Below, piece by piece: positions 9,047 through 31,866 of a DNA stretch of 32,000 nt. Numbering within the stretch: position 1 is the first letter of the stretch; the number at the start of each line of letters is the position of its first letter. A program made the position numbers and the translations under genes. The notes beneath the pieces were generated by a model, which was not told where the DNA came from, made no database searches, and saw only the letters and a program-made list of their open reading frames with translations. Location: positions 1,290,001 through 1,322,000 of the forward strand of contig NZ_RSDW01000001.1 in NCBI RefSeq assembly GCF_003945235.1, given 5' to 3'. The stretch comes from Edaphobacter aggregans. GTDB lineage: Bacteria > Acidobacteriota > Terriglobia > Terriglobales > Acidobacteriaceae.

Positions 9047-9066
9047 CCAATGGGGTTATTGAATAT

Positions 9067-13461: not shown

Positions 13462-13496
13462 GATGAAACTCCTTAGATTGAATCAAGCCACTATGT

Positions 13497-14930: not shown

Positions 14931-15068
14931 GCCATTCCTCCTGAAAATAGTTATTTCAACATTTGCATTGGCTACATGTCCCCGTGAGGCAGGCCCCTTC
15001 GATTATCTTCGCGCGATAAAAATACGAATGGAGATCGAATCGCACCAACTCGGCACATCCCGAGTTCT

Positions 15069-15109
15069 ATTATTAGACGTAAACACGCCCTTGCCCCTGA
15101 CGTACGTCA
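15069..15109 (-). promoter_or_regulatory. candidate class II CRP/FNR-type promoter for arcD-arcA: TGAC-N4-GTCA box plus -10-like AATAAT
   Basis: A perfect 12-bp palindrome TGACGTACGTCA lies at 15098-15109, which is the core of TTGAY-N4-RTCAA sites. On the minus strand AATAAT occupies 15074-15069. The centre-to-centre distance is 32 bp, as expected for a box at -41.5 and a -10 hexamer at -9.5. The box is 168 nt upstream of the arcD ATG. Confidence 0.4.
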
Positions 15110-15716
15110 CAGCTACGTTAAAAATTGGCCCGATGTTCTACAAGGTGCCACTCGAGATCCAAGCCTTCGGCCTGCTCTGGCACCTCGCTACTCCACGGGC
15201 ACCCTCGGTCGGAAACAATAACAGAAAAGAGTGTTAGAGAACAAATTACGTCATCGGGTTGCTTGTAGTTTGCGGACGCGGCAGACCTACTATTCTTGCA
15301 TCAGAAGCTCTTTCTGTTTTAGCTTATGCCTGCTATGGAACTATCGCTCAGTGTTGCTCTGAATGAGTTATCTTGCTGACGAAGGAGAATTAACTTTCAA
15401 ACTAGTAATTGCGTAGCTAGAAACTGCGTAGGCATCGGATAACGCAAATTCACCGAATTTACCTATCGATTTAAGACTTTGGTCGTATTAGGACCTTGGT
15501 CGCGTTGACATAGCGCTTCTAACTCGATAAAGATCGACGGTGTTGCAAGCCTTGCTCTGAAATTCAAATACCATGCAATAATTGCACTACAATTTTGAGT
15601 TGGAAGTTCCGGCCCGAATAACTCTCCATGGTTACGATGTAGTATCTGACAGTTCCGCGAGTTGATGGTTCTGCGAGTGTTTTTCCATCAGAGCCATCGT
15701 AAAGGGAGACGGTGTT

Positions 15717-17314: not shown

Positions 17315-18814
17315 ATGAAGATAGCGACGATAATGCCACTGATGTTTTTGCTGCTTTCGGGCACGACGCAAACGATAGCGCAGGAGACTCCCACACAGGA
17401 CGAGGTGGCGCGCAGATTACAGGGTCGGATGGATGAGTTGAGAACCCAAATGAACGAGATTCAGGGTGAACTGGATGCCTTGCATGGGGTGAATAATCTT
17501 GCCGAGGCCGTGAAGGACCTCAAGCCTGTGCCTCAGTCTTTACAGACGGGAGCTATTGAGAGGACGATGCCGCCGTTGCCGTCTGCGGTACAGCTAACGC
17601 CGGAACAGCAGCGGATGGCCGTAGGCAAGGAGACCGCTGCTTATGAGTCGTTTGCGGAGGAGTCGGAGCCTGTACCACGGCTTTACAATGCGCCGCTGGA
17701 GGCCACAATGCCGGGGTTCTTCGTGCTGCCAGGTACGCAGACCATGATGCGGATCAATGGGCTCATCAAAACCGACGTTATGTTTGACCCGCGGCCGGCT
17801 GGATTGGCGGACTCTTTTATCCCGTCGACGATACCGATTCCGCAGACAACGAGCACTAACAATTTCAACGCGAGTATTCGGGAAAGCCGATTCTCGGCAG
17901 ACTTCCGGATTCCTGTGAGCAATATAGGAATGGCTCGGACGTTTATTCAGTTCGATTTCTTCGGTGGTAATGGAGCTACTACGCCGCGGCTGCGCCATTT
18001 CTATGCGCAACTCCACAACGTTCTGGTGGGACAGACGAATACGGTCTTTATGGATCCAGATGCGTGGCCGGACATTATCGAGTTTCAGGGACCTACATCG
18101 GGACTCCTCGCTCGCATTCCGCAGGTTCGTTATACCTTCCCGCTGGGGAAAGGATTTAGTGCTGCTGTGTCAGTGGAGCAGCCTAGTACCGATGTCAGCT
18201 TCTCGGTGAATGGCTCATCGGCGGTTCCTATTACTCCTGCTCCTGATGGGGGCTTGCGGGTTCGGTATGAAGGCGATCGCGGGCATCTCTACTTCTCTTC
18301 GATCCTTCGTGAGCTGGCAGTGCATATGCCCGTTACCGGACAGCAGCAGTCTGTTTTGGGTTGGGGTTTGAACCTATCGAGTACCTGGCGTGTGGTGGGG
18401 AGAGACACTCTCAATTATCAGGTTGCTTATGGCAATGGAATCGCAAAATATACGGGTGATGGGTTCGGCCTTGGTCTGGATGCGCAACCCAAGTCGGACG
18501 TCGACCTTACGCTAAAAGCACTGCCAACCTTCGCTCCGTGGGTCAGTTATCAGCACAACTGGACCAGATCCGTCCGGTCGAGTGCGACCTTTGGATTGTT
18601 GCAGATTCAGAATACTGCGTTCCAGCCAGGCACCACATATCATAAGAGCACCTATTCGTCAGCCAATGTCATCTGGAATGCATATGGCAGCTTGTCTTTC
18701 GGTGCGGAGTTTATGTACGGGTGGGTGGAGCAGAAGAACCAGGAGAAGGCCAATGCGCCCCGTCTTCAGTTTTCTGGGAGATATACCTTCGTGAAGTTGC
18801 ATCCGAACGAATAA
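17315..18814 (+). CDS. outer-membrane porin, DcaP-like (N-terminal coiled coil plus beta-barrel)
   Basis: AGGAGG lies 7 nt before the ATG at 17315. Sec signal MKIATIMPLMFLLLSGTTQTIA|Q, then a coiled coil (VARRLQGRMDELRTQMNEIQGELDAL). The barrel shows alternating-pattern strands (MRINGLIKTDVMFD, IRESRFSADFRIP, TFIQFDFFG) with a terminal strand LQFSGRYTF. The longer ORF from 17030 overlaps nhaC and is rejected. Confidence 0.65.
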   Translation: MKIATIMPLMFLLLSGTTQTIAQETPTQDEVARRLQGRMDELRTQMNEIQGELDALHGVNNLAEAVKDLKPVPQSLQTGAIERTMPPLPSAVQLTPEQQRMAVGKETAAYESFAEESEPVPRLYNAPLEATMPGFFVLPGTQTMMRINGLIKTDVMFDPRPAGLADSFIPSTIPIPQTTSTNNFNASIRESRFSADFRIPVSNIGMARTFIQFDFFGGNGATTPRLRHFYAQLHNVLVGQTNTVFMDPDAWPDIIEFQGPTSGLLARIPQVRYTFPLGKGFSAAVSVEQPSTDVSFSVNGSSAVPITPAPDGGLRVRYEGDRGHLYFSSILRELAVHMPVTGQQQSVLGWGLNLSSTWRVVGRDTLNYQVAYGNGIAKYTGDGFGLGLDAQPKSDVDLTLKALPTFAPWVSYQHNWTRSVRSSATFGLLQIQNTAFQPGTTYHKSTYSSANVIWNAYGSLSFGAEFMYGWVEQKNQEKANAPRLQFSGRYTFVKLHPNE

Positions 18815-18943
18815 GCGCGGCCGCGAGGCGATATATCGACAATCGACTTTTGCATTTTCCATAGGACCTATAAGCCACGACTAAACACTTCGAAGTCGGG
18901 CAAGAAAGAATTTCTCTATGAGTCGTAATCTTGGGCCTCGTTA

Positions 18944-21151
18944 CTAGAACTTACGTAAGTTTGCGCGTATAGCTTCATTCCCAGGTTCGAGTTGTAGCGC
19001 ATGTTGCAAGTCGCGCCGCGCTGCAGAAATATCTCCAGCCCGCGCCTCGATCACCCCGAGGTCATTCCAATCGCCCGCGTTTCCGGGGGAGAGGGTAACA
19101 ACTATCTTCTGTTCCCGTACTGCATCGGATTCGCGTCCCAGTTGACTGTACATCTGCGCTAGAGCCCGATGTGGGTCCGCATCGGTCGGCGATAATCGTT
19201 GCCAAGACTGAAGATGCTCCAACGCCTTCTCTGGTGTTCCAATTCTGGCATATACAAGGGCTAACAGGCGCTGAGCATCCTTATCGTTCTGCACCGCAAT
19301 CGCCCTTAAAAGGAGGGACTCCGCCAATTGTAGGTTGCCATTTTCTACCTCGATCCTCGCCGATCCATACAAGGCATCGAAATTGTCCGGCGTGGCCTCG
19401 AGTACCTGATCGAACTCTCTCTTTGCCTCACCCGGACGACCGCTCGCCAGCAGTACATTCGCCAGTCCGTTTCGTGCCGCTGCGTCCTCCGGATGGGAGA
19501 GCGTGAGAGTACGAAACAGTTGCTCTGCCTCAGGCAGCGCGTCATGCCTCAGGTCGATCGACGCCAGATCGAATAGCGCATCCAAGTAGTTCGGATCTTT
19601 CGCCGCTGCAGCACGGTACTGCGCTTGGGCTGATTTCCAGTCGCCACTCGCTTCCATTGCAGAGCCTAGAGAAGTCAGCGTACGTACGTCGTCTGGGTGT
19701 CTTTCCAACGAGCGCCGATATAGCTCCTCGGCCCGTGCTCCATTACCCTTCATCATCGCCAGCGAAGCCAGGTTATACAGCGCAATATCGTCATGTGCAT
19801 TTTTGCGGAGTCGATCTTCCATCCACACGCGCTCTAACTCCATCTGAGGATCCACACCCACAACTTGATTCTCGGGACGCGGCACTACCTGCAGCCAAAG
19901 GTGACCCATTTCATCTACAGACCGGTTCCCTGCCCTTACTCTGACAGGTGGAGAATTCGGATTCCGTACATTATTTGCCGAGTTATCGTAGGTGTAGCGC
20001 ATATGAACCACGCTTCCACGTGGCAATGAGACCGGCTTCGCAAAACGGTAGACGGATTGTCTATTGATGTCCCAGTCCTTTATTAGGATCAACCACCGGC
20101 GTTCTCCATTCGGTAAAACAGCCCAACCTTCCATTCTCTTACCGAGATAATGCGCGTGAGGATAGATCCCCAGCACGTCGACCGAGACCGGTAGCTTGAG
20201 TTCGTCTTCAATAACAAAAGCGGCGCCCGGAGGAATGTCCAGAGCCGCATCGTGCTCCAATTGCAGCAGCATAGGATGTTCTGTTGCCGGCTTGTCAGTG
20301 AAGTAAAGTCCAATCTGAGCGCGAACGTGCTCTATCTTGCCGGTTGGCTTTAAGTGCATGTTCAACACGAGATCGTTTCCTTCATCCAAGCGCCATGGCA
20401 ACCCTTCAGGCTCGATCAGCGCCGTCGAGTCTGGCTTCCAGAAGAGAAAATGGCTGTCTGGATCGAAGCTCTCGCCCGAGTCCACCAGGATATCCATTCC
20501 TGGTATGCCCTTCTGCCAATCATTGGGATGCGCCCGCCGCAAGGAAGCCGTTCGGTCCAGAATCACGTTTGCATGATGTACAACTTGAGGAGCTCCTGGC
20601 TTAATCTCCATGGCTCGCACCCATCGAGTCCCCTTCTGCGGCACCGGCAGAACGAAATTCTCGAAGAGATCCGTTCCACCCGCAGGGACTTCTATCGGCG
20701 CTGCCATCTCCAGCACAAGATCCGGACGTCCCAATACCCAATCACTTTTGTACACGGGTGGGGTGGGGGTGCTGCCGTCTCCCTCCGGCATCCCTGCTTC
20801 GACCCAGGCCTTCACCAACTCAATATCCTCATTCGTCAGGCGCCGCTCGCCTTCAAATGAACCGTATCCTGGCTCGGGCAGCCACGGAGGCATGTAGCGA
20901 CTCGCTGTTACGGTCTTTATCAAGCCACCCCAGCGTTTCGCATCCTGGTAGGTCATCAGCGCAAATGGACCGGATCCACCAACGTGGTGGCAACTCGTGC
21001 AGTTTTTGTAGACCAATGGAGCAATCTGCTGCCGCCATGTCACTGGCTCCGCGGACGCGTATACCGTCTCCCACCCTTTATGCGATGCGGCCAGCACTAT
21101 GCCTGACATTGCCACGGCTGCAGCTACATGCACCCTGACCGTCGCGTTCAT
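18944..21151 (-). CDS. exported fusion protein: cytochrome-c-type CxxCH module + PHM/DBH-like copper monooxygenase-fold region + C-terminal TPR array
   Basis: N-terminal hydrophobic signal/anchor. IAPLVYKNCTSCHHVGGSGPFALMTY...SRYMPPW carries a CxxCH at residues 51-55. Copper-site-like motifs are QVVHHANV (His192/193), LVLNMHLKP (His266), IYPHAHYLGKRMEGW (HxHxxGK, His332/334) and SVDEMGHLW (Met415). Their order and spacing resemble the PHM CuH (H,H,H) and CuM (H,H,M) ligands. Residues from about 445 onward are TPR repeats. Confidence 0.7.
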   Translation of the reverse strand: MNATVRVHVAAAVAMSGIVLAASHKGWETVYASAEPVTWRQQIAPLVYKNCTSCHHVGGSGPFALMTYQDAKRWGGLIKTVTASRYMPPWLPEPGYGSFEGERRLTNEDIELVKAWVEAGMPEGDGSTPTPPVYKSDWVLGRPDLVLEMAAPIEVPAGGTDLFENFVLPVPQKGTRWVRAMEIKPGAPQVVHHANVILDRTASLRRAHPNDWQKGIPGMDILVDSGESFDPDSHFLFWKPDSTALIEPEGLPWRLDEGNDLVLNMHLKPTGKIEHVRAQIGLYFTDKPATEHPMLLQLEHDAALDIPPGAAFVIEDELKLPVSVDVLGIYPHAHYLGKRMEGWAVLPNGERRWLILIKDWDINRQSVYRFAKPVSLPRGSVVHMRYTYDNSANNVRNPNSPPVRVRAGNRSVDEMGHLWLQVVPRPENQVVGVDPQMELERVWMEDRLRKNAHDDIALYNLASLAMMKGNGARAEELYRRSLERHPDDVRTLTSLGSAMEASGDWKSAQAQYRAAAAKDPNYLDALFDLASIDLRHDALPEAEQLFRTLTLSHPEDAAARNGLANVLLASGRPGEAKREFDQVLEATPDNFDALYGSARIEVENGNLQLAESLLLRAIAVQNDKDAQRLLALVYARIGTPEKALEHLQSWQRLSPTDADPHRALAQMYSQLGRESDAVREQKIVVTLSPGNAGDWNDLGVIEARAGDISAARRDLQHALQLEPGNEAIRANLRKF

Positions 21152-21753
21152 CGTGCCGAATCACCTTTAGCGGTTTCCTTAGAGCTAATAATCCCGCACC
21201 CCACTGGGGTCCCTGTCGCAGTCTCTACGCGCCCCCCACTTAACGCAGCGTTCAGCGCTCGATCAGCAAAGTGCTTGGTCGCATGCGAGCGTTCTTCCCC
21301 GATTCGAACGTATCGATCATCAATACGTCCGGTGTACGCCGGCCGCCATCCAGCCGTTCCGTCGGGCACCAGCACTGAGACTTCCGGAGTTACCCGCGCT
21401 CCGCTTATTTCTACAAGCTTGCCCTGCACATCGAGTACAGCCTCGCCGCCGGCATCATACGCAACCTGATGCTGCGTCACCTTCTCCGATTGTTCCCCTT
21501 TATTCGGATAGACAAACCAGAAGCGGACTCCGCGCGGGGCAAATTCCTCGCGTAACCGTTTCATCTCAGGGAAGGTACGGTTCGAGATCGGGCAATCCGT
21601 AGCCACAAAAAAAAGCACGATCGCTTTCGTACCGGGCGCAGCCAACGAACTTATCTTCCGTCCATCGGTCCCAACGCCATATGTCGGACGCTCCTGTGCC
21701 AAAAGGGGCAAGGTGGCAAACGTCAATGCGAGCGAAAGTACGCAGCGCAACAT
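21148..21753 (-). CDS. exported thioredoxin-fold (redoxin/TlpA-like) protein with monothiol CPIS motif
   Basis: Sec signal MLRCVLSLALTFATLPLLA|Q. KAIVLFFVATDCPISNRTFPEM has the layout of beta1-active site-alpha1 in the thioredoxin fold, with CxxS in place of CxxC. Its stop overlaps the downstream start (ATGA at 21148-21151). Confidence 0.6.
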   Translation of the reverse strand: MLRCVLSLALTFATLPLLAQERPTYGVGTDGRKISSLAAPGTKAIVLFFVATDCPISNRTFPEMKRLREEFAPRGVRFWFVYPNKGEQSEKVTQHQVAYDAGGEAVLDVQGKLVEISGARVTPEVSVLVPDGTAGWRPAYTGRIDDRYVRIGEERSHATKHFADRALNAALSGGRVETATGTPVGCGIISSKETAKGDSAR

Positions 21754-21820
21754 ACCTTATCCTAATCGCTTGGCCCTTACTCCGAAACCTATGGCTTGGG
21801 TCTCGTGGCGCAGAGATTTC

Positions 21821-23536
21821 CTAGTAGCGTGATGGATGGCCCTTGCCTTCGGTCAGTTCGAAAATGAGGTCGGGAGTTGAAGGCGGATCGAAGAGTTCGG
21901 TGAGGCCGTTGGGCCAGCGGACCTGAATGTCCTTGAGCTGGGTCTCGGTGCCAAGGCCAAAGTGGAGGCGGAGATCGCTCGAAGAGTTGTAGCTAGAACC
22001 GCTGCGAACCTCATCGACCCAGAGACGGGTGGCGCTATGGAGGGTGACCCTGGCTCCGATGGCATCTCGGTTGGAGGTGGTTCCGACGAGGTGCAGGCCG
22101 AGCCAGTGGTTCTGGCTCTTGGCGAGATTAATGAGAAGCGTCGGATCGTCGCTGAGATTGTTGACAACAGCTTCGATACGGCCATCGTTAAAGAGGTCGG
22201 CAATTGCCAGGCCACGGCCGGAGTGGCGTTCTGCTAAGGCGGGGCCGGAGGTTTTACTGATGTCCCTGAATTTGCCGTTGCCGAGGTTGTAGTAGAGGAA
22301 GCGGGGTTCGCGGTAGAAGGAGCCTAGCTTGGCCGAGTCAACCTCAGGGTAGACGTGACCATTGACCACGAGAAGATCGGGCCAGCCATTGTTATCGACA
22401 TCAGCGAACATAACACCCCAGCCAAGGGCGTCGGTGTTGATGCCGAGACCCGCTTGGAAGGTTGCATCGGTGAAGGTGCCGTCGCCGTTGGCATGGTAGA
22501 GGGTGGAGGTATCGTCCGAGAAGTTAGTTTTGAAGAGGTCGGGGTAGCCGTCGCCATCGTAGTCGGCGGAGGCGGAGCCCATGCCGGCCTGCTCGCGACC
22601 ATCTTCGTTGTAAGCCACGCCAGAGTCGGCGGCGACGTCAGTGAAGGTACCGTCGTGGTTGTTGCGATAGAGAATGGAGGGGGTGGAGTCGCAGGCAACG
22701 TAGATGTCGGGCCAGCCGTCGTCGTTATAGTCGATAGTGGTGACTGAGAAGCAGTAATGACCGTTGGTCCGCTCGAATCCACTGGATTTGCTGACGTCTT
22801 CAAATTTGCCATCACCGAGATTGTGATAAATCACGTTCGGCGCGCTCGGAAGGCCGCGTGGGCCACACATGACCGGGGCACCTTTCCACATACAACTGAC
22901 GCCAGCGCCCGGTTTAGGAGTTGTCGCGAGATCGAAGTGCACGTAGTTGGCGACGACGAGATCGAGTTTGCCGTCGCGGTCATAGTCGACGAAGGCGCAG
23001 CCGGTGCCCCACTCTTTGCCGGTACCGGCGACTCCTGCCTGCTCAGCTACCTCTTTGAATGTGCCGTTGCCTTGGTTGTGGAAGAGCCGATTCTTGCCAT
23101 AGCCGGTGACGTAAAGGTCGTCGAAGCCGTCGTTGTCATAATCACCGACGCAGACTCCCTGGCCCCAGCCGATCGAAGCCAAGCCTGCACGGGCAGTGAC
23201 GTCGGTGAACGTACCATCGTGGTTGTTGTGGAAGAGGTGACTGGTTGGTTTTTCTTTTGGATTGGCGGAGTCGCCGGGCAGCGTGGTCCCGTTGACGAGA
23301 AAGATGTCGGGCCAGCCGTCGCGATCGTAGTCGACGATTGCCACGCCGGAGCCTGTGGCTTCGATGATGTAACGCTTGGAATCGACACTTCCATTGACGT
23401 TGCGGACAGTGATACCCGCTTTGGAGGCTACATCGACGAACCAAGCGGGCGGTGGGTGATCAATAGTGGGTGGATAGGGTTGTTGTGCGAAGACGTGCGA
23501 TAGAAGAAGAAGCAAGAGCATCGTGAAGGCGCGCAT
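21821..23536 (-). CDS. CRTAC1-family protein (FG-GAP/VCBS beta-propeller repeats + ASPIC/UnbV C-terminal domain), Sec signal
   Basis: Signal MRAFTMLLLLLLSHVFA|Q. Repeated units D(Y/F)DxDGxxD(I/L)(F/Y)V.N and (L/F)(F/Y)xNNxDGTFTDV. The C-terminus NRDAIGARVTLHSATRLWVDEVRSGSSYNSSSDLRLHFGLG...VRWPNG is the ASPIC/UnbV signature. Confidence 0.85.
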   Translation of the reverse strand: MRAFTMLLLLLLSHVFAQQPYPPTIDHPPPAWFVDVASKAGITVRNVNGSVDSKRYIIEATGSGVAIVDYDRDGWPDIFLVNGTTLPGDSANPKEKPTSHLFHNNHDGTFTDVTARAGLASIGWGQGVCVGDYDNDGFDDLYVTGYGKNRLFHNQGNGTFKEVAEQAGVAGTGKEWGTGCAFVDYDRDGKLDLVVANYVHFDLATTPKPGAGVSCMWKGAPVMCGPRGLPSAPNVIYHNLGDGKFEDVSKSSGFERTNGHYCFSVTTIDYNDDGWPDIYVACDSTPSILYRNNHDGTFTDVAADSGVAYNEDGREQAGMGSASADYDGDGYPDLFKTNFSDDTSTLYHANGDGTFTDATFQAGLGINTDALGWGVMFADVDNNGWPDLLVVNGHVYPEVDSAKLGSFYREPRFLYYNLGNGKFRDISKTSGPALAERHSGRGLAIADLFNDGRIEAVVNNLSDDPTLLINLAKSQNHWLGLHLVGTTSNRDAIGARVTLHSATRLWVDEVRSGSSYNSSSDLRLHFGLGTETQLKDIQVRWPNGLTELFDPPSTPDLIFELTEGKGHPSRY

Positions 23537-23538
23537 GA

Positions 23539-25413
23539 CTAGCCTTTACTCGATGTTTGCTGAGGACCCATGGCTACTGTCTTAAGAATCTTGCCGCCTT
23601 CCTGAATGACGTAGAGGTGATTGGGGGCGAGTGCGGGAATCTTGTCGACGGTACCAGAGGGCCAACGAATCTCGACGTCGGCCTTAGTAGCGTGGTCGAG
23701 GCCAAAGTGGAGTCGGAGGTCGTTCTGTGAGAAGTAACTGCCGCCGCTACGAACCTCATCGATCTGGACGAAAGGTTTGGCATCGGGAGATGGTTGCGTG
23801 GTAACTGATATTCGTGAGCCGATACCGGTGCGATTGGACTTGGTTCCTATAGTGCGGATCTTGATCCAATTGCGAGCGGGGCCGGCGTCGGGAGAGGGAT
23901 CGCAGCGAAGGAGTTGGGGAAGGCTATTGATGCAGTTGACGACCACATCGAGGTCACCATCGTTGTCATAGTCTCCGAAGGCCGTACCTCGCGCGGGAGC
24001 GGGCGTGGTGATGCCGGGGCCGGCTAGTGCGGTGACCTCTTCAAACTGGCCGTTGCGGAGATTGCGGTAGAGGTACTTGTGCTGCGCGTAGGGGGCATCG
24101 ACGTTGGTGCCTTCAACCTCAGGGTAGACGTGGCCGTTGGACATGAGAATGTCGAGCCAGCCGTCGTTGTCCATGTCGAAGAAACCCACGCCCCAACCAA
24201 GGAAGCGAGTATTGACACCGAGGCCGGAGAGGTAGGTGTGATCGTCAAAGTTGCCGTTGCCAAGATTGAGATAGAGGGAGTCGGTGTCGCCGGCAAAGTT
24301 GGTCTTGACGATGTCGAGGAGGCCATCGCGGTTGAAGTCACCGATTGAGACGCCCATGCCGGCCTGGGGTTTGCCATCGGGGGAATAAGCAATGCCGGCC
24401 TCAATGGCGACATCTTTGAAGGTACCGTCCTTTTGATTTTGATAGAACGTTGCGGCGGTGGAGTCATTGGCGACGTAGATGTCGGGCCAACCGTCGTTGT
24501 CGAGATCGGCGACTGAGACAGAGAGGGCGTACGTCCCAATGGTGTCCCACATGCCGCTCTTCTGTGAAACGTCGGTGAAGGTACCGTCGCCGTTGTTGTG
24601 GTAGAGGATGTTCTTCCCACCTTGTAAACCGGGAGGACCGCAGGCTACCTGAATGCCCTTGTAAGCACAGCCTGCGGCTTCGGGAAGTGGTGCGGTCTTA
24701 ATGTCGAAGTCGATGTAGTTAGCGACGAAGAGATCGAGATTGCCGTCACGGTCGTAGTCGAGGAAGGCGCAGCCGGAGTTCCAGCGGGTTTTCGATTGGA
24801 GGAGGCCAGCTTTGGCAGTGACGTCGGTGAAGGTACCGTCGCCGTTGTTGCGGTAGAGGACGTTCTGACCGTAGTAACTGATGAAGAGATCGTTCCAACC
24901 GTCGTTGTTGTAGTCGCCGACACAGCAGCCCTGTCCCCATCCGCTGCGTGCAAGACCGGCTTTAGCAGTAACGTCGGTGAAAGTACCATCCCGATTGTTC
25001 TTGAAGAGATGCGAGACGGGTTCCTGGTCCTTGGCAAAGCCTTCGAGACGGGAACCGTTGACGAGAAAGATATCGACCCAGTCATCGTGGTCATAGTCGA
25101 AGAAAGCTACTCCGCAGCCTGTGGTTTCGAGCAGGTATCTGTTCTTGTGCTCACCCCCATAGATAGTTTTGGCATTGAGGCCGGACTGGCGGGCGACGTC
25201 GATGAAGCTGATGCCAAGAGGAGTGCCAGCGACAGGCGAGGGAGCACCTTTGGGCGCTGGCCGAGGCTTGGCGTCGTAGGTGGGGCGTGAGCCGACCTGT
25301 GGAGTTGCTTGTTGTGTACTTGCCGGAACTGCCAAGGCGAGCACGTCATCGAGCGAAAGAACGAGAGATGTGCAGGAGAGAGAGGTGAGGAATGTACGAC
25401 GAGACCAGGTCAA
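23539..25413 (-). CDS. CRTAC1-family protein (FG-GAP/VCBS repeats + ASPIC/UnbV domain) with twin-arginine (Tat) signal
   Basis: TTG start with GGGGGAG 8 nt upstream. The N-terminus MTWSRRTFLTSLSCTSLVLSL...LALA|V fits S-R-R-x-F-L. The repeat architecture matches the downstream paralogue. The C-terminus NRTGIGSRISVTT...VQIDEVRSGGSYFSQNDLRLHFGLG...IRWPSG. Only 2 nt separate its stop from the next ATG. Confidence 0.85.
   Translation of the reverse strand: MTWSRRTFLTSLSCTSLVLSLDDVLALAVPASTQQATPQVGSRPTYDAKPRPAPKGAPSPVAGTPLGISFIDVARQSGLNAKTIYGGEHKNRYLLETTGCGVAFFDYDHDDWVDIFLVNGSRLEGFAKDQEPVSHLFKNNRDGTFTDVTAKAGLARSGWGQGCCVGDYNNDGWNDLFISYYGQNVLYRNNGDGTFTDVTAKAGLLQSKTRWNSGCAFLDYDRDGNLDLFVANYIDFDIKTAPLPEAAGCAYKGIQVACGPPGLQGGKNILYHNNGDGTFTDVSQKSGMWDTIGTYALSVSVADLDNDGWPDIYVANDSTAATFYQNQKDGTFKDVAIEAGIAYSPDGKPQAGMGVSIGDFNRDGLLDIVKTNFAGDTDSLYLNLGNGNFDDHTYLSGLGVNTRFLGWGVGFFDMDNDGWLDILMSNGHVYPEVEGTNVDAPYAQHKYLYRNLRNGQFEEVTALAGPGITTPAPARGTAFGDYDNDGDLDVVVNCINSLPQLLRCDPSPDAGPARNWIKIRTIGTKSNRTGIGSRISVTTQPSPDAKPFVQIDEVRSGGSYFSQNDLRLHFGLDHATKADVEIRWPSGTVDKIPALAPNHLYVIQEGGKILKTVAMGPQQTSSKG
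24569..24860. repeat. intragenic direct repeat: two 40-bp copies (24569-24608 and 24821-24860) differing at one base
   Basis: The copies are ACGTCGGTGAAGGTACCGTCGCCGTTGTTG(T/C)GGTAGAGGA, 252 bp apart and in frame. On the coding strand they encode LY(H/R)NNGDGTFTDV of consecutive FG-GAP/VCBS units. More diverged copies lie near 24970, 23200 and 22630. Confidence 0.9.
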
Positions 25414-25530
25414 ATGGGCGCTCCCCCTCTATAGGCCGAATGCTATATCAGTCGGCTGCGACCGCCGGCCACTGGATAGCAGTGCAGTGAGTATAGAGAA
25501 GGGACCTGCAGGCAGGCAATGAGGCACTCT

Positions 25531-27360
25531 TTACTGGCGGGAAGGGGAGTTAGCTCCTGAAGTCGATTGGGCTTGCGTGAGCTTTTGAGCTTGTTGACGC
25601 TCAAGGGCGGCATCGGCGCTCCGGCCTTGCAGAGCAAATGCATCGGCGAGGGCAGAGTGAGCCTCGGCGTAATTTGGGTCGGCGGCGACAGCTGCCTGGA
25701 GTTGCGCGGTGGCTTCGGAGAGTTGGCCACGCTTGAGTAAGAGGCGTCCGCTGTCGAGTGCAAAGTTTGCGCGCTGGCGACTGACGGCGACGCGGCTGAG
25801 GTCGGCGGCTTTTTTGCGCTCGGCTGCTGCGCCAGCGGTATCGCCCTGGCGTATAAGAATAGCTGCAAGAGTGATATGAGGGCTTGGCTGATCGGGCATC
25901 AGCTCAATTGCGTGACGTAGCGCAGCGATAGCTTTTTCAGGTTCGTTGTTCTGCTTGTAGACATTGCCGAGCATGGCCCAGGCGTCGCCGTGATCTGGCC
26001 TGAGGGTTGTGGCTTTCTCAAGCTCGACCTGGGATTCAGAGAAGCGTCCGAGCTGCATGAACAAAACGCCGAGAGTGTAGGGAGGATCGGGAAGAACGGG
26101 GTCGAGTTTTGCTGCTTGCTCGAACTCCTGAATAGCGGCGGGCACATCGTCCTTTAGTTTGAAGGCGAGGCCGAGATCGTAATGGAGTTGGGGATTATCA
26201 GGTTCCACGACGAGACCTGACCGAAATTGCTCGATGGCATGATCCAGATCGGCTTGCTGAAGATAGGCGACTCCGAGATTTTCGCGGAGTGTTCCGCTGT
26301 TGGGCGTAAGTTTGAGCGCGGTGAGATAGAGAGGGATTGCGCGCTTGGCATCCCCTAGCTGCACGAGATCTAGGCCGAGATTGATGAGGGCGGCGGAGTC
26401 TTGCGGACGGGCAGCAACAACCTGCTCGAAGAGGGGTAAAGCTTCCCGGGCGCTACCGCTGGCCTGAAGGGTTAGGGCGAGTTCATATTTGGTGTCTATA
26501 CGAGACGGATCAAGTTGAAGAGCATGACGAAGAATTGCGGCAGATTGCACATCCTGATTAGTGTCACGGAGAGCGCGGATAAGTTGGAGAATGTAGTCGA
26601 TGTTGTCCTTAGCGAGGGCGTTCGCCTGTGTAAGCTCGGTTACGGCGTTGGCGGGATCGTGAATAGTGAGGAAGACAGAACCAAGGTGGTAGTGCGCAGC
26701 AGGAAGATTCGGATCGAGCACGATAGCCTGGCGGAACTGCGATGCTGCATCATCGTAGCGTTCCTGCTGGGCGAGGACAGTGCCGAGTGTGTCGTGAAGC
26801 GTTGCGTCATTGGGTTGGGCGGCGAGAGCCTTTTCGAGCTGGCTTTGCGCGGCCGCGGGTTGTGATGTGGCAACGAGCGCGGTGGCGTATGCAATGGCCG
26901 CATTGGGTGTGAGAATCTGGTCTGCCTGGTTTATCAGGTCGAACATCGTTACGGATTTGGTATAAGCGTGAAGCTGCTCGTAGGCGACGGCGAGGTTCAG
27001 TGTCGCGTTGGTGTCGTGCGGATCGAGTTCGCGGGCTTGTTCCAGCTCTGCCGCGGCTGCATGGGGATTTCCTTCGGCTAGTAGAACCGTTCCAAAGGCG
27101 GTGTGCCCGGCCGCTACATTGGGAGTAAGATGTACGACCTTTGCAAACTGCGCGTGGGCGGTAGGCAGATCGTTCTGCTGATAGGCGGCGGACCCTGCGC
27201 GAAAGGCTGCATCCGCTGCTTTGAGATTGGCAGTTGGGGCCGGGCTCGACTTGGCTGAGGGAGTAGCGTTCGTTTGTGCCGAAGTCTCGACGTACGCCAG
27301 CGACAGGATAGCTGTGAAAAAGACGGGCAGGAGCGACGAGTGTGCAGGGTGAAGGCGCAT
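25531..27360 (-). CDS. exported tetratricopeptide-repeat (TPR) protein
   Basis: Nearly the whole protein is made of 34-residue TPR-like units (e.g. AHYHLGSVFLTIHDPANAVTELTQANALAKDN, AWAMLGNVYKQNNEPEKAIAALRHAIELMPDQ). The ATG at 27360 gives a good signal peptide, MRLHPAHSSLLPVFFTAILSLAYVETSA|Q. The ORF could instead start at TTG 27387. Confidence 0.85.
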   Translation of the reverse strand: MRLHPAHSSLLPVFFTAILSLAYVETSAQTNATPSAKSSPAPTANLKAADAAFRAGSAAYQQNDLPTAHAQFAKVVHLTPNVAAGHTAFGTVLLAEGNPHAAAAELEQARELDPHDTNATLNLAVAYEQLHAYTKSVTMFDLINQADQILTPNAAIAYATALVATSQPAAAQSQLEKALAAQPNDATLHDTLGTVLAQQERYDDAASQFRQAIVLDPNLPAAHYHLGSVFLTIHDPANAVTELTQANALAKDNIDYILQLIRALRDTNQDVQSAAILRHALQLDPSRIDTKYELALTLQASGSAREALPLFEQVVAARPQDSAALINLGLDLVQLGDAKRAIPLYLTALKLTPNSGTLRENLGVAYLQQADLDHAIEQFRSGLVVEPDNPQLHYDLGLAFKLKDDVPAAIQEFEQAAKLDPVLPDPPYTLGVLFMQLGRFSESQVELEKATTLRPDHGDAWAMLGNVYKQNNEPEKAIAALRHAIELMPDQPSPHITLAAILIRQGDTAGAAAERKKAADLSRVAVSRQRANFALDSGRLLLKRGQLSEATAQLQAAVAADPNYAEAHSALADAFALQGRSADAALERQQAQKLTQAQSTSGANSPSRQ

Positions 27361-27479
27361 TATCTCAGAGGTGATTTTAGCGAGCAATGGGTGTTTAGGG
27401 AATTTTGCAGATGGAATCGTCTCGTCTGTGAAGAGCCGGGAGGGTAGACTGGGGAGTCTTTGATGGCGATGGAGGCAAT

Positions 27480-29999
27480 ATGCGCCTTGTCTTGGTTGGG
27501 ACAGCGATGCTTTGCGGAATGGCTGCCGCGCAGACGACCGGTCTGCAGCCTGTAAACTCTTTTCCGCTAAAAGAGGATGGACTAGTTATTCGCCGGCATG
27601 TGGAGTCGGGTATGCCTTTTACGGTGGCGGGCACTCAGGGCGTCATCCTAGGTCAGCAGGAGGGTATATTCGAGGCGTGGACGCTGCCTGTGAAGCTGCT
27701 TAGTCATTTCAGCATCAAGGCCGAGGTGGAGGGATATCCCGTACCGATTGAGCTGAAGGATCACGCTCGTGAGATTGAAGTGTTTCCTAATCGCACGGTG
27801 ATCACGTATTCACATATCGCCTTTACGCTGCGACAGATTATGTTTGCGCCGGATGAGATGGAGCCTGGCACGGGTGCTGTAGTGCTGTTTCAAGTGGACT
27901 CGGCGCGGCCGGTTGACCTGACGTTCAGCTTCAACCCTGAGATGCGTCCAATGTGGCCACAGGAGGATCAGGGGATACCGTCGGCAGAGTGGATTAAGCT
28001 GGATGCGAGCGGGTTCTACGTGCTCCATACAGACTTTCCAAATCTTGCCGGTGCTGTGGCGATGCCCACGTCGCAGCCAGGCATTATGGCCCCCTATCAG
28101 GAGAAGCCGCAATTTCATCCGTTGGAACTGAAGCTCCACTACGACCAAAAACGGGATAAAGACCGTTACTTCCCGCTGCTTATGGCAGTGGGGACTACGA
28201 CCGAAACCGCTACGAATGTAGCATTGCAAGCGAAGTTGGAGCGGCTGGGAGCAATAGTAGAGCAAACATATTCAGCTCATGCGGCGCGATACCTCCGCAT
28301 GATGAAAGAGTTGACTGCGATTCGGACCCCTGATGCGGATTTGAATAACGCGTTCTCCTGGGCGTCAATTTCCATTGAGCAGTTGAGAGCGAAGGTGCAG
28401 CCCACTGGCGAGGTTGGGCTGGTGGCTGGATATTTTTCGTCCGGCGATTCGGCACGGCCTGGATTTGGCTGGTTCTTCGGGCGGGATGCGCTATATACGC
28501 TCTATGCGGTGAATGACTTTGGCGACTTCAGGCTAAGCCGCGAAGCAATGGAATTTCTGATACGGCGGCAGAGGGACGACGGGAAGATGATGCATGAGTA
28601 CTCGCAGACAGCGGCGAATGTGGATTGGAGGGCACTGCCGTATATGTATGCTGCGGCTGACGCGACGCCGTTATTTCTGACCGCGATGCTGGACTACGTG
28701 CGGAGCAGTGGGGACGCGGACTTCTTAAGGCGCCACCGCGAGTCGGTTGAAAAGGCATGGCATTTTGAGATAACGCATGACTCGGACGGTGACGGCATCT
28801 ACGACAATGCCCAGGGAACCGGCTGGGTTGAGAGCTGGCCACCGGGGATGCCACATCAGGAGATCTACCTGGCGCTCTTGGACCAGCAGGCGTCCACTGC
28901 CATGGCAAAGTTGGCTAGCTTACTGAACGACAAGGCTACAGCAGAATCAGCCGCGAAACGAGCGGATGAACTGAAGAAGAAGATCGAGAGGGAATATTAC
29001 GATTCCACCCGCGATGCTTATGCGTTCAGCCGCAATAGAGATGGGACGCTTGACCATACGGCGACGGTCTATCCGATGATCGCATGGTGGAATGGAGGAG
29101 ACGGTCTGACCCATGCAGATGCAAGTTTTCAACGATGGGCTTCACACGATTTCTCAACCGATTGGGGCCTGCGCGACATCGCAGAGAGCGACCCTCTCTT
29201 CGATCCGATCAGTTATCACCAGGGATCAGTGTGGCCGTTGTTTACAGGATGGGCTGCTGTGGCGCAGTATCGCGCGGGACATCCGCTCACTGGGTATGCT
29301 CACCTGATGCAGAACGCCGATCAGACAACGATGCAGGATCTTGGGGCAGTTACAGAATTACTGTCCGGAGCTTTCTTTCAGCCGTTCGGACGAAGCACAA
29401 GTCATCAGCTCTGGTCCTCTGCTATGGTTGTCGTTCCGGCGATACGAGGCTTGTTTGGGATCGATGTGGATGCAGTATCGGAAAGTGTTTGGCTCAATCC
29501 ACATCTTCCGGCTAATTGGGACAACGCTGAGGTGCAACGGCTGCATGTGGGGGAAGCAGTGTGTGCTCTGGAGTACAAGCGCGAAGGGCAGAGACTGGTT
29601 GTACACATCAAGACTGTGTCCGGCAAAAATGTCAGGCTGACGACCTCGGTGAAGGAATCGCAGGTGACAGCAGATGGATCCTCTATCATTTTTGCGCTGC
29701 CGCCGGTCGAAGTTGCATTACCGCATCGGCTGCCGTTGCAGGGGGCGCGAACGGCTCAGATGAAGGTGCTCAGCGAGACGAGGGATTCACACTCGTTGAA
29801 GCTTGAGTTGGAGGCTGCCGCAGGATCTATTGTTGAATTGAAGGTTCGCCGCAATGGTCCGAAGCTGAATCTTCGCATCGAAGGCGGCACTCTGACTGCT
29901 GCAGGAGATACTGATGCGCAGAGCAATATCGATCAAGTAGTAGTAAGATTTCCGGACGGATCAGGATATCAGCATCGCGCTCTAACACTGAGTTGGTAA
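27480..29999 (+). CDS. exported six-hairpin (alpha/alpha)6 glycoside hydrolase, glycogen-debranching-enzyme C-domain-like (amylo-alpha-1,6-glucosidase family)
   Basis: GGAGG precedes the ATG. Signal MRLVLVGTAMLCGMAAA|Q. GFGWFFGRDALYTLYAV, ...DATPLFLTAMLDYV... and ISYHQGSVWPLFTGW resemble the GDE_C/COG3408 motifs FGRD and YHNGxVWP. There is a C-terminal beta-rich tail. Confidence 0.6.
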   Translation: MRLVLVGTAMLCGMAAAQTTGLQPVNSFPLKEDGLVIRRHVESGMPFTVAGTQGVILGQQEGIFEAWTLPVKLLSHFSIKAEVEGYPVPIELKDHAREIEVFPNRTVITYSHIAFTLRQIMFAPDEMEPGTGAVVLFQVDSARPVDLTFSFNPEMRPMWPQEDQGIPSAEWIKLDASGFYVLHTDFPNLAGAVAMPTSQPGIMAPYQEKPQFHPLELKLHYDQKRDKDRYFPLLMAVGTTTETATNVALQAKLERLGAIVEQTYSAHAARYLRMMKELTAIRTPDADLNNAFSWASISIEQLRAKVQPTGEVGLVAGYFSSGDSARPGFGWFFGRDALYTLYAVNDFGDFRLSREAMEFLIRRQRDDGKMMHEYSQTAANVDWRALPYMYAAADATPLFLTAMLDYVRSSGDADFLRRHRESVEKAWHFEITHDSDGDGIYDNAQGTGWVESWPPGMPHQEIYLALLDQQASTAMAKLASLLNDKATAESAAKRADELKKKIEREYYDSTRDAYAFSRNRDGTLDHTATVYPMIAWWNGGDGLTHADASFQRWASHDFSTDWGLRDIAESDPLFDPISYHQGSVWPLFTGWAAVAQYRAGHPLTGYAHLMQNADQTTMQDLGAVTELLSGAFFQPFGRSTSHQLWSSAMVVVPAIRGLFGIDVDAVSESVWLNPHLPANWDNAEVQRLHVGEAVCALEYKREGQRLVVHIKTVSGKNVRLTTSVKESQVTADGSSIIFALPPVEVALPHRLPLQGARTAQMKVLSETRDSHSLKLELEAAAGSIVELKVRRNGPKLNLRIEGGTLTAAGDTDAQSNIDQVVVRFPDGSGYQHRALTLSW

Positions 30000-30015
30000 C
30001 TGACAGACGTAGTCA

Positions 30016-31866
30016 TCATTTGAGACGACCGATCCATGATCCGTAGGGCGGCAGGGTGATTTCGGAGAGAGCGGTCACATTCTGAAGCGATGCGTCACTC
30101 GTGAGCAGTGTTTGTGCAGATTTCCCCAAAGTCTTAGCGTACGTCTGATCGACAAAAAGAGGTTGCGGCTGGCCGGTGCAATTGAGCGAGACGAGAATGG
30201 ACGGCTGCCCAGCGGCATCTTGGCGAATGAACGACAGCACAGAAGGGTTGTTTACGTCGACCATAACCATTTTGCCGTTACGCAGGGCTGGGTCTTTTCT
30301 ACGCAAAGCGATTAATTGCTTGTGCCAGTTGAGCAGTGAATTCGGCTCATGCTCTTCCGCCTTGACGCTGGTCGCGCGATAGCTTGCAGGAACGGGCAGC
30401 CAGGTTGTGTCGGCGGTACTAAAACCCGCGTTCTTCGAATCATCCCACTGCATAGGAGTGCGTTCTCCGTCGCGGCCTTTCTCCAGAGGCCAGCCCGTGA
30501 CGCCAATGGGATCCTTCACGTCCTCTACGCGTGTCGGTGGAGTAGTGACCATTCCTATCTCCTCGCCGTAGTACATCAGCGCGGTAGAACGCGAGGTAAA
30601 CAGAAGGGCAGCAATGAGTTTAGCGATGGCCTCGTTATGCACGCCATCACCGTAACGGTCCCAACTACGGATGTTGTCATGATTGTCGAAGACGAAGAGC
30701 GGTTGATTGCCGCTGATCTTTGTCTCCGCATCGCTGATTCGCTGACGAAGAAGGTTGGCGTCGAGTTGATTAGTGAAGCCTACTTGCATGTCCATGGGAA
30801 GTTGGAGCTCGTCGTGCTTTGCTCCGCCGTACCACTTGTCGAGTTCCTGTATGTTTGGCAAATAGGTCTCACCGATCAGCACACGATCGCCAGGGTATTG
30901 ATCAGCTAAGGCGCGAAGACGGCGCATGACATCGTGCACCTCTGGCAGGTTGTCGTACATGTCATGCTCTTGCTTGCGATCGCCATAGGCGTTGGTGCCT
31001 TCTATCTCCTTGGCATCGCGAAGAGCTGGATCTTCGAAGAGCGTGGGGATTGCGTCGAACCGGAAACCTGCTACGCCTCTGTCGAGCCAGAAACGGACGG
31101 AGTCGAACATGGCTTTTTCTACGGCAGGATTGCGCCAGTTTAGATCGGGCTGTTGGGCGTAGAAGCGGTGGTAGTAGTACTGGCCTGTCTTTGGATCGTA
31201 CTGCCATGCTGAGTGCCCGAATTCACTGATCCAGTTATTGGGCGGATTGTTCGGCGGAGTTCCTCCAGCTTTTCCATCGCGCCACACGTACCAGTCACGT
31301 TTTGGATTATCTTTCGAGCTTGCCGATTCAATGAACCACTTGTGTTTATCGGAGGTGTGGTTCATCACCATATCCATAAGGATTCGGATATTTCGTTTCT
31401 TGGCCTCGGCTACAAGCCTGTCGAAATCGGCGAGCGTACCGTACTGCGAGTCAATATTCTCGTAGTCGGAGATGTCGTAACCAAAATCGACTTGCGGAGA
31501 GGGATAGATGGGCGAGAGCCAGATGGCGTCGACGCCGAGAGACTGCAAATAGTCGAGACGCTGGGTGATTCCGTTGAGATCGCCGATTCCGTCGCCGTCT
31601 GAGTCCTGAAAACTACGCGGATATATCTCATAGAAAACGGCGTGTTTCCACCAGGGATCATTGCTATGCTGCACCCCGTTGTTTGCATGCGCGTCTGTAG
31701 CGCCATGTGGGGGTGCCTGTGCCGATGCGAGATTCCAGGCCCCGGAGATAACCAAGAGCGCGAGCGAGGCGAGGGACATCCGGATCATCTGAGAGCGGGT
31801 GGAGGTACTTGTAATAGCGGTCAAGACTTGCCTCCTGCGATGCGGGAACAATATAGCACTGCCCAT
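30016..31866 (-). CDS. GH13 alpha-glucosidase / oligo-1,6-glucosidase-type alpha-amylase family enzyme, with N-terminal signal-like segment
   Basis: WWKHAVFYEIYPRSFQDSDGDGIGDLNGI is present, along with the four GH13 regions: DMVMNH (I), GFRFDAIPT (II, nucleophile Asp), LIGETY (III, acid/base Glu) and FDNHDN (IV). The start is either ATG 31866 (GGAG upstream) or ATG 31788, which yields a clean signal MIRMSLASLALLVISGAWNLASA|Q. Confidence 0.9.
   Translation of the reverse strand: MGSAILFPHRRRQVLTAITSTSTRSQMIRMSLASLALLVISGAWNLASAQAPPHGATDAHANNGVQHSNDPWWKHAVFYEIYPRSFQDSDGDGIGDLNGITQRLDYLQSLGVDAIWLSPIYPSPQVDFGYDISDYENIDSQYGTLADFDRLVAEAKKRNIRILMDMVMNHTSDKHKWFIESASSKDNPKRDWYVWRDGKAGGTPPNNPPNNWISEFGHSAWQYDPKTGQYYYHRFYAQQPDLNWRNPAVEKAMFDSVRFWLDRGVAGFRFDAIPTLFEDPALRDAKEIEGTNAYGDRKQEHDMYDNLPEVHDVMRRLRALADQYPGDRVLIGETYLPNIQELDKWYGGAKHDELQLPMDMQVGFTNQLDANLLRQRISDAETKISGNQPLFVFDNHDNIRSWDRYGDGVHNEAIAKLIAALLFTSRSTALMYYGEEIGMVTTPPTRVEDVKDPIGVTGWPLEKGRDGERTPMQWDDSKNAGFSTADTTWLPVPASYRATSVKAEEHEPNSLLNWHKQLIALRRKDPALRNGKMVMVDVNNPSVLSFIRQDAAGQPSILVSLNCTGQPQPLFVDQTYAKTLGKSAQTLLTSDASLQNVTALSEITLPPYGSWIGRLK

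Follow-up and report, generated by a model that had tools for sequence, protein, structure and literature searches.

The 32,000-nucleotide stretch of the Edaphobacter aggregans genome analysed here (contig NZ_RSDW01000001.1, positions 1,290,001 to 1,322,000; hereafter the window) carries five consecutive minus-strand genes for putatively exported proteins, the last two of which encode a thioredoxin-fold redoxin and a protein that joins a cytochrome c, a PHM/DBH-like copper core and TPR repeats. The features of this cluster, from its first gene to its last, and the region in front of it are as follows.

27388..27479, no strand: divergent intergenic region between the cluster and a glycosidase gene, likely a shared promoter region
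25531..27387, minus strand: open reading frame (ORF) of 618 aa (longest-ORF length), all-TPR, putatively exported
23539..25413, minus strand: CRTAC1-type beta-propeller A, 624 aa, with FG-GAP_3 repeats, a C-terminal UnbV_ASPIC domain and a twin-arginine signal
21821..23536, minus strand: CRTAC1-type beta-propeller B, 571 aa, with FG-GAP_3, UnbV_ASPIC and a Sec signal
21148..21753, minus strand: exported thioredoxin-fold redoxin, 201 aa, with an AhpC-TSA/Redoxin Pfam match
21148..21151, minus strand: ATGA start/stop overlap that couples the redoxin gene with the gene for the 735-aa protein
18944..21151, minus strand: exported cytochrome c/PHM-like/TPR fusion, 735 aa, assigned from Pfam, model fold and ligand conservation

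The gene positions given in an initial annotation of this DNA were reproduced exactly, as were the junctions of 117 nt, 2 nt (TAG-tc-ATG), 67 nt and -4 nt (the ATGA overlap). The divergent, secreted glycosidase that it had placed close to the cluster starts at 27480, 92–119 nt from the first cluster gene, for which the ATG at 27360 (MRLHPAHSS...) is the likely start. Export signals were judged by eye from the N-termini, and this reading again gave four Sec-like signals and one twin-arginine signal on the five products. An Rfam scan of the window matched no RNA family, and promoter and terminator scans across the cluster and the divergent region returned chance-level hits only.

The 735-aa protein, hereafter the enzyme, begins with an N-terminal signal/anchor, followed by a monoheme cytochrome c domain, a dicopper core of two jelly rolls that is PHM/DBH-like, and some eight TPR repeats, with the following boundaries.

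20792..21046, minus strand: cytochrome c module, residues ~36–120, with C51-x-x-C54-H55 and the candidate distal ligand M87
19862..20734, minus strand: PHM/DBH-like core, residues ~140–430, with CuH-type ligands H192/H193/H266 and CuM-type ligands H332/H334/M415
18947..19819, minus strand: C-terminal TPR domain, residues ~445–735, a strong Pfam TPR match; family members differ in the length of this domain or lack it

In Pfam, the enzyme matched Cu2_monoox_C at 17.7–18.7 bits (cut-off 23; aligned residues 323–394) and Cytochrome_CBB3 at 17.8 bits (cut-off 27), and Cu2_monooxygen (PF01082) was undetected in the same scan. Because these scores are sub-threshold, the cytochrome c and copper calls were checked independently. 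Cytochrome_CBB3 reached 27.0 bits in homologue P0139, equal to the cut-off, and 34.1 bits in P0122, and weak matches across 34 family members comprised Cytochrome_CBB3 in 22, Cu2_monoox_C in 17 and Cytochrom_C in two, with no competing family. When PDB sequences were searched with the full-length protein, with the profile of the family and with the C-terminal copper subdomain, the matches were TPR proteins, weak monoheme cytochromes and noise, with no PHM or DBH among them; NCBIfam gave generic sub-cut-off TPR matches only, with nothing for the redoxin or propeller B. An AlphaFold (AF2) model built with 50 homologues (predicted local distance difference test, pLDDT, 83.8; predicted template modelling score, pTM, 0.75) was then compared with known structures by Foldseek. 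TPR structures were the top matches for the model, and residues ~140–430 matched human DBH (4zel, E 6.5e-10) and PHM (3mll, E 9e-10, target TM 0.60). The PHM structures 3mll, 3mlj and 1sdw all lay at ~1e-9 with TM 0.55–0.60, and the four matches together spanned E-values of 6.5e-10 to 2.3e-9 and target TM values of 0.38–0.60.

Conservation was assessed in an alignment of 150 representatives of 50%-identity clusters, which are 41–64% identical to the window protein. The heme-binding CxxCH (C51, C54, H55) is present in 145/145 representatives and M87 in 148/148, while the CuH-type ligands H192, H193 and H266 are kept in 148/150, 150/150 and 148/149 and the CuM-type ligands H332, H334 and M415 in 146/148, 147/148 and 143/145, so that CxxCH and all six canonical copper ligands are retained in at least 98% of representatives. 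With its CxxCH, the candidate distal Met (M87) and the export signal of the protein, the cytochrome module has the hallmarks of class I c-type cytochromes. The sequence contexts of the ligands are VHHA, PHAHYLGK and DEM, which presumably resemble those of PHM CuH (H107, H108, H172) and CuM (H242, H244, M314). The assignment of ligands to CuH and CuM follows motif similarity and the partial Pfam alignment (323–394) rather than a residue-level superposition. The architecture of heme c, PHM-like core and TPR repeats proposed in the initial annotation stands after the model, conservation and weak-Pfam checks, its PHM/DBH-type reading holds by fold (Foldseek E ~1e-9) and by conservation of the six ligands, and the redox modules are real, so that reassignment of domains does not remove them. 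Taking model and sequence together, the enzyme is predicted to be a PHM/DBH-type monooxygenase that is wired by a cytochrome c, with a redoxin as its partner.

The family to which the enzyme belongs is large. With the N-terminal 451 residues as query, we recovered 14,313 clusters at E <=1e-3 and 2,523 at E <=1e-30, counted as 50%-identity representatives, and members range from 422 aa, without TPR repeats, to 1,117 aa. P0122 (1,064 aa) carries a duplicated core and EF-hands and has no TPR repeats. Members with names come from Acidobacteriaceae, Rhodothermales, Planctomycetota and Phycisphaerales, where the naming sources annotate them only as TadD, LapB, TPR or ‘mono/diheme cytochrome c’ proteins. 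Neither Pfam nor NCBIfam has a model that names the family, and no precomputed Pfam domain covers its core. PHM-family proteins have been described as mainly eukaryotic (PMC8812541), and our literature searches found no description of bacterial cytochrome c–PHM fusions or of their pairing with a redoxin.

The redoxin scores 31.8 bits against Pfam AhpC-TSA/Redoxin, just above the cut-off of 26, with the active site C54-P-I-S. In 35 aligned homologues, C54-P-x-S57, E63, M64, H95, T122-P123 (the cis-Pro) and C186 (in VGCxI) are invariant. The earlier label ‘monothiol’ is incomplete because, besides C54, C186 is also invariant in the family. Its model (pLDDT 90) and its profile agree in their best matches, namely 2YWI (E 1.6e-9 by profile, 7.7e-11 by fold), 2CVB/2YWO and 3U5R, with ResA, TlpA and DsbE in a second tier; the invariant C54-P55 and G185-C186 are both paired with their counterparts in 2YWI and 2CVB by the profile alignment. 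A published analysis takes the C-terminal cysteine of 2YWI to be a resolving one (PMC3091736). The redoxin is accordingly placed, from profile and predicted fold, in the atypical two-cysteine family of 2YWI/2CVB/3U5R. Membership of the canonical peroxiredoxins was rejected since PxxxTxxC is absent (LFFVATDC54P has Thr at -2, Ala at -3 and no Pro at -7), as was that of the TlpA/ResA/DsbE-type CxxC reductases, which the absence of CxxC speaks against (CPIS here, CPIA in locus L169) even though the T122-P123 cis-Pro is invariant. A Sco-type copper chaperone was likewise rejected: the invariant H95 is present, but CxxxC is absent and no Sco structure is among the top fold matches. The likenesses to Sco, peroxiredoxins and ResA may be kept as functional analogies alone.

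We compared the locus across genomes using two sets. The first comprised 80 loci from GTDB species representatives, all of Acidobacteriaceae type and 51–78% identical, and the second comprised 80 more diverse, shorter metagenome loci, which were found with a 7-sequence alignment (an 18-sequence one was too divergent); eleven individual genomic contexts were inspected besides. The conserved unit is the pair formed by the redoxin gene and the cytochrome c/PHM-like/TPR gene, which are translationally coupled. The redoxin gene lies immediately upstream on the same strand in 74 of the 78 testable loci (L001–L083; a hidden Markov model count gave 71/75), and a 4-nt start/stop overlap joins the two genes in 65 of these 74 (ATGA in 53, GTGA in nine and TTGA in three). 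Among the diverse metagenome cases, the genes adjoin in 42/69. In distant genomes the redoxin gene occurs downstream, in L088 (after two tandem enzyme paralogues) and in L169, or upstream with a 4-nt overlap in L170, and in P0161/L085 the redoxin and the enzyme are fused in a single ORF (37% identity to the window redoxin, E 2e-26). This is strong evidence that the redoxin and the enzyme work together, because their adjacency is conserved, their order changes and a fusion exists. As a separate observation, tandem cytochrome c/PHM-like paralogues may share one redoxin gene, as in L088 (5794–10136), L089, L097 and L102, with up to three copies in L102.

The remaining three genes of the cluster form a unit of another kind. 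Pfam confirmed the domain calls previously made for the TPR protein, the two FG-GAP/ASPIC-UnbV propellers and the redoxin: the 618-aa protein is TPR throughout (TPR_11 E 6.5e-57 and others), and the propellers A and B match FG-GAP_3 (1.1e-53 and 2e-58) and UnbV_ASPIC (7.6e-18 and 4e-18) well above the Pfam cut-offs. The propellers are 48%-identical paralogues, and the gene for B starts 2 nt past the stop codon of A. Two long ORFs overlap the CRTAC1 genes, one of 248 aa at 22757–23503 on the plus strand and one of 198 aa at 24024–24620 on the minus strand in another frame, and both are probably artefacts of repeat-rich, GC-rich coding sequence. The lineages of propellers A and B are called CRTAC_A and CRTAC_B here, and the 618-aa protein is the orthologue of a cluster of TPR proteins (TPR595) that precedes CRTAC_A-type propellers in relatives. 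Every CRTAC_A-type gene has a TPR595 gene close by, which is its immediate upstream neighbour in 11 of 13 loci and is separated from it by one gene in L016 and L051. The twin-arginine signal of propeller A (SRRTFL) is not a one-off assignment because its orthologues retain the twin arginine (NRRKFI, NRRQFL). CRTAC_A keeps this twin-arginine translocation (Tat) signal in L002, L009, L058 and L062, among others, whereas CRTAC_B has a Sec signal, which points to export of propeller A in a folded or cofactor-loaded state. Of the 80 Acidobacteriaceae loci, 17 have a CRTAC1 gene no more than 10 kb from the core pair (19 genes across 1.34 Mb of flanking sequence), as do 7 of the 80 diverse loci (8 genes across 0.50 Mb), and FG-GAP_3 propellers lie within 10 kb of the enzyme gene in 5 of 8 distant contexts. 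Our literature searches found no function described for bacterial CRTAC1.

An unbiased clustering of all 1,685 flanking genes placed these genes in a wider recurrent neighbourhood. The counts below are loci out of 80 in each set, with that for the redoxin an underestimate from greedy gene calling.

Redoxin neighbour: Acidobacteriaceae 56, metagenome 32
TonB-dependent receptor (CarboxypepD_reg and outer-membrane barrel): Acidobacteriaceae 36, metagenome 9
Small TPR protein (~356 aa): Acidobacteriaceae 21, metagenome 9
Multiheme cytochrome c with TPR (~586 aa): Acidobacteriaceae 20, metagenome 4
CRTAC1 (clustering count): Acidobacteriaceae 15, metagenome 6
GH13 (glycoside hydrolase family 13): Acidobacteriaceae 14, metagenome 6
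TPR595: Acidobacteriaceae 13, metagenome 3
GntR/LacI-type regulator: Acidobacteriaceae 12, metagenome 0
Short-chain dehydrogenase: Acidobacteriaceae 11, metagenome 2
GH839 (839-aa glycosidase): Acidobacteriaceae 8, metagenome 1

The recurrent set exceeds plain synteny because the other flanking genes are mostly unshared. Its members occur in shuffled arrangements, written here from left to right with the direction of transcription.

Type I, 7 loci including Granulicella and Tunturiibacter: GntR leftward; then receptor, small TPR protein, multiheme cytochrome–TPR, redoxin, enzyme, TPR595 and CRTAC1, all rightward
Type II, 5 loci: CRTAC1, TPR595, small TPR protein and receptor leftward; then redoxin and enzyme rightward
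Type III, 5 loci: small TPR protein and receptor leftward; then GntR, GH13, redoxin and enzyme rightward
Type IV, ~3 loci: small TPR protein, receptor and multiheme cytochrome–TPR leftward; then redoxin, enzyme, GH13 and GH839 rightward
Bryocella (L022): GH13 rightward, GH839 leftward, then TPR595, multiheme cytochrome–TPR, redoxin and enzyme rightward

The diverse set contains the same partners, as in L137, which has two CRTAC1 genes, GH13, the redoxin, the enzyme, the multiheme cytochrome–TPR protein and a small TPR gene. In L002, L137 and L171 the enzyme gene has a gene for a diheme or multiheme cytochrome as its neighbour. The multiheme proteins are c7/c3/c554-like with paired CXXCH motifs and are fused to TPR repeats (L002 7542–9338, L044 7047–8807, L137 11945–13627), and they are a candidate electron donor in relatives. 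The window holds a reduced version of the recurrent set, to which its TPR and CRTAC1 genes belong. The initial annotation had regarded all five genes as one cooperating machine; the redoxin–enzyme core of that proposal is robust and the accessory genes do recur near it outside this genome, in several genera, but the TPR and CRTAC1 genes form a separate, facultative module that lies within 10 kb of the core in ~20% of Acidobacteriaceae loci. Elsewhere in the family, a 770-aa membrane protein combining PMT_2 (a GT-C glycosyltransferase) with TPR repeats is encoded divergently from the enzyme gene (L089 7536–9848), an arrangement also found in L091, L093, L094, L097, L101 and L102 and often accompanied by a second TonB-dependent receptor type.

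Beyond the cluster, the window encodes two further secreted enzymes.

27480..29999, plus strand: secreted (alpha/alpha)6 glycosidase-like protein, 839 aa, MGH1-like/GDE_C (MGH1-like_GH 7.2e-14)
30016..31866, minus strand: exported GH13 alpha-glucosidase-type enzyme, 616-aa ORF (Alpha-amylase 2.7e-134; signal peptide from M27/M30)

Orthologues of the former are the GH839 genes that recur near the core pair in 8/80 Acidobacteriaceae loci, and a GH13 orthologue directly adjoins the core pair in many relatives. In L058 (12208–15836) the enzyme gene overlaps the GH13 gene by 4 nt and a trehalase gene (GH37/MGH1-like) comes next, and because of this overlap and the trehalase that follows, the redox pair appears there to share one operon with alpha-glucoside hydrolases. 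From 17315 to 31866 all genes of the window encode exported proteins, namely a DcaP-like porin, the five cluster products, the MGH1/GDE-like glycosidase and the GH13 enzyme. The real start of the porin gene is at ~17315, and it therefore does not overlap the NhaC gene. Elsewhere in the window (12208–17210 and 4810–11780), arginine deiminase, amino-acid permease and NhaC/ArcD-like antiporter genes stand together as an arginine deiminase-pathway-like set, with a LysR regulator gene and an RND efflux operon (AcrB, HlyD, OEP) nearby and an Nramp gene further off.

A cooperating extracytoplasmic oxidative system is plausible, with a substrate and chemistry that we infer as follows. The periplasm presumably lacks ascorbate, and the enzyme's own heme c would take up electrons one at a time, from the respiratory chain or partner cytochromes, and hand them to the CuH-type site (H192, H193, H266). 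Oxygen would be activated at the CuM-type site (H332, H334, M415) and a C–H bond of the substrate hydroxylated, while the TPR domain may hold a protein partner or the substrate itself. For the one-electron route, the heme, together with the extra cytochromes of relatives, is plausible; delivery through the redoxin, which the initial annotation had also proposed, is unlikely for a two-cysteine thioredoxin-fold protein of 2YWI/2CVB type. The redoxin would instead be a near-obligate thiol-based partner that may serve in peroxide or oxidative-damage control, in maturation of the copper or heme sites, or in disulfide exchange with the substrate. The propellers would be binding or processing partners, and the accessory module would be linked to the core, as its recurrent co-location, in shuffled orders, in Acidobacteriota suggests. 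Given the make-up of the recurrent set, with its TonB-dependent receptor, small TPR protein, multiheme cytochrome–TPR protein and GH13 enzyme, the system most likely processes something that crosses or is held at the outer membrane. The genes found around the core for a receptor, a sugar-type regulator, GH13, a trehalase and GH839 speak for an imported substrate related to carbohydrates; the abundance of TPR proteins speaks for a protein complex or a protein as substrate.

That the redox core and the accessory set are two conserved modules working in one extracytoplasmic system is the reading towards which we lean, by a narrow preference. Several observations weigh against it. About 79% of the Acidobacteriaceae loci (63/80) have no CRTAC1 gene within 10 kb, and the five-gene order of the window is repeated only in L001, an 89%-identical relative. 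Promoters could be present in the gaps of 117 nt and 67 nt, a point on which the promoter and terminator scans are uninformative. Plain-synteny clusters (FtsZ, a penicillin-binding protein, an MFS transporter) also reach 9–10 loci, and CRTAC1, FG-GAP and TonB-dependent-receptor genes are abundant in these phyla; their enrichment near the core is argued rather than computed. The 32-kb window lacks the TonB-dependent receptor, the small TPR protein and the multiheme cytochrome. For the enzyme itself, the similarity to PHM in sequence is below the Pfam and PDB thresholds, the heme domain is poorly modelled, with a low AF2 confidence that is expected because the model contains no heme, and the carboxylate-binding R240 of PHM appears, by motif alignment, to correspond to an invariant Y330. 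Literature searches gave no biochemical or expression evidence.

The strongest competing explanation is that the genes are chance neighbours, made up of two or three unrelated units (the TPR gene with a duplicated CRTAC1 gene, and the redoxin with the enzyme). It draws on the rarity of the exact gene order, on the loci without CRTAC1 and on the gaps that separate the modules, as well as on the description of CRTAC1/ASPIC-UnbV as an expanded paralogue family in Acidobacteria (PMC3174227). The plus-strand GC skew also switches sign at ~22 kb, between the modules and within the same-strand cluster (window 21000–23000); the coding strands of the TPR and CRTAC1 genes are C-rich and those of the redoxin and enzyme genes G-rich, which may reflect amino-acid or codon usage or differing histories of the two modules. 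Yet orthologous TPR595 and CRTAC_A genes (~70% identity) are found upstream, downstream or divergent of the core in different genera, a single random orthologue in ~5 Mb would be expected within 10 kb at ~0.4% of loci against the ~17% observed, and FG-GAP propellers recur beside distant family members. The cluster finding is real and above chance, and we regard mere neighbourhood as somewhat unlikely.

Two further readings differ in the substrate. In the first, which we consider unlikely, the core pair supplies the oxidative step of a locus for carbohydrate uptake: the receptor imports an oligosaccharide, periplasmic GH13, GH63-like or trehalase enzymes cleave it, and a C–H bond of the glycan is oxidised by the copper enzyme. 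The glycan alternative gains some support from the context of GH13, trehalase, GntR/LacI-type regulator and TonB-dependent receptor: GH13 adjoins the pair in two orientations, in L058 with the overlap and trehalase noted above, many loci contain a sugar regulator of the GntR/LacI type and a SusC-like receptor that has a CarboxypepD_reg domain, and the GH839 and GH13 enzymes of the window are both secreted and neighbouring. PHM also belongs to the same Pfam clan as the glycan-binding PNGase F (PMC8812541). Adjacency is nevertheless weak evidence here because acidobacterial genomes are dense in glycoside hydrolase and receptor genes; many loci and the distant contexts L085–L087 have no glycoside hydrolase nearby, no PHM-family enzyme is known to act on sugars, and alpha-glucosides are not recalcitrant, which would make their oxidation needless.

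The second, the model of the initial annotation, is PHM-like hydroxylation of a peptide or protein with electrons arriving through heme and redoxin and with the TPR and propeller proteins as partners. The PHM/DBH fold and ligands, the by-eye export signals on every product and the many TPR proteins in the recurrent gene set agree with it, as does the general knowledge that TPR domains commonly bind peptide termini. However, a Cys/Cys thioredoxin-fold protein is a two-electron thiol–disulfide carrier and a poor donor to one-electron copper, the nearest relatives of this redoxin are peroxiredoxin-like or ResA-like, and the flanking-gene clusters contain no precursor-peptide gene or peptidase consistently near the core. 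The apparent replacement of PHM R240 by an invariant Tyr, in the motif alignment, argues against classical glycine-extended peptide amidation; in the same alignment, PHM Y318 presumably corresponds to the invariant W419 and PHM N316 to a variable position. We judge this model decidedly unlikely. A non-catalytic jelly-roll binding module (CBM- or PNGase F-like) in a TPR/cytochrome scaffold would fit the sub-threshold PHM similarity and the naming sources, which annotate only TPR, TadD or LapB proteins, but it is highly improbable given the six metal ligands and the DEM motif in 143–150/150 divergent representatives, a conservation that would be unexpected without a metal site in the PHM-like core.

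Our preferred reading of two cooperating modules can be extended to a bolder one, which is rather unlikely as a whole: a very large bacterial family, numbering over 14,000 clusters at 50% identity, of PHM/DBH-type dicopper monooxygenases that are fused to cytochrome c, paired with a redoxin and wired to the respiratory chain, and which, in Acidobacteriota, would belong to an envelope machine that hydroxylates an imported or surface-bound glycan, aromatic or protein. Its other parts would be the TonB-dependent receptor, the TPR scaffolds, the multiheme cytochromes and the CRTAC1 propellers. Such a TonB-dependent-receptor-linked multi-protein system is the more novel reading compared with a redoxin-paired, cytochrome c-wired enzyme alone, and is unproven. 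If true, it would offer the first functional context for the bacterial CRTAC1 family. PHM and DBH are textbook animal enzymes, and the huge bacterial branch retains the full dicopper site, with a c-type heme fused to the enzyme and a thioredoxin-fold partner dedicated to it taking the place of the ascorbate/DOMON logic. An active enzyme would provide a tractable bacterial model for how electrons arrive at two separated coppers, a new class of periplasmic C–H oxidising enzymes in abundant soil bacteria, and a first functional lead for bacterial CRTAC1 propellers and the recurrent TonB-dependent-receptor-linked gene set.

Compared with known systems, the enzyme shares with PHM, DBH and tyramine beta-monooxygenase (PF01082/PF03712, non-coupled binuclear copper) the two-jelly-roll fold and the HH...H and HxH...M ligand sets. 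It differs from PHM and DBH in being bacterial and predicted to be exported to the periplasm, in its fused N-terminal c-type heme and C-terminal TPR domain, in the absence of a DOMON domain, in the near-constant thioredoxin-fold partner gene, in a reductant that is presumably not ascorbate, and in the apparently missing carboxylate-binding Arg. The redoxin resembles 2YWI (Geobacillus), 2CVB/2YWO (Thermus) and 3U5R (Sinorhizobium) in its single Cys-Pro active site and C-terminal GC, but unlike these solved relatives, whose function is unknown, it carries a signal peptide, and its gene is coupled to that of a copper enzyme. Both window propellers share with the CRTAC1/ASPIC-UnbV family the FG-GAP-type repeats followed by UnbV_ASPIC; they differ in that one lineage here has a Tat signal, always comes with a TPR gene before it and often belongs to a TonB-dependent-receptor operon. 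Relatives also share with SusC-type TonB-dependent-receptor loci, which resemble polysaccharide utilization loci (PULs), a CarboxypepD_reg receptor, a sugar-type regulator and glycoside hydrolases that flank the core, whereas SusD is missing, the receptor is absent from the window, and the redox pair and cytochromes have no counterpart in described PULs. Membership of the LPMOs (AA9–AA17) was rejected since fold and ligands are PHM-like and binuclear rather than those of a mononuclear histidine brace, and the likeness may be one of role only. The cytochrome domain of cellobiose dehydrogenase feeds LPMOs, and cytochrome b561/DOMON partners serve DBH-type enzymes in eukaryotes. In both of these systems a heme domain acts as a one-electron shuttle to an extracytoplasmic copper oxygenase, and by analogy the same is proposed here, with the differences that the heme is of the c type and sits in the same polypeptide as the oxygenase, that the oxygenase fold is PHM-like, and that relatives of the window enzyme have multiheme or diheme cytochromes encoded alongside.

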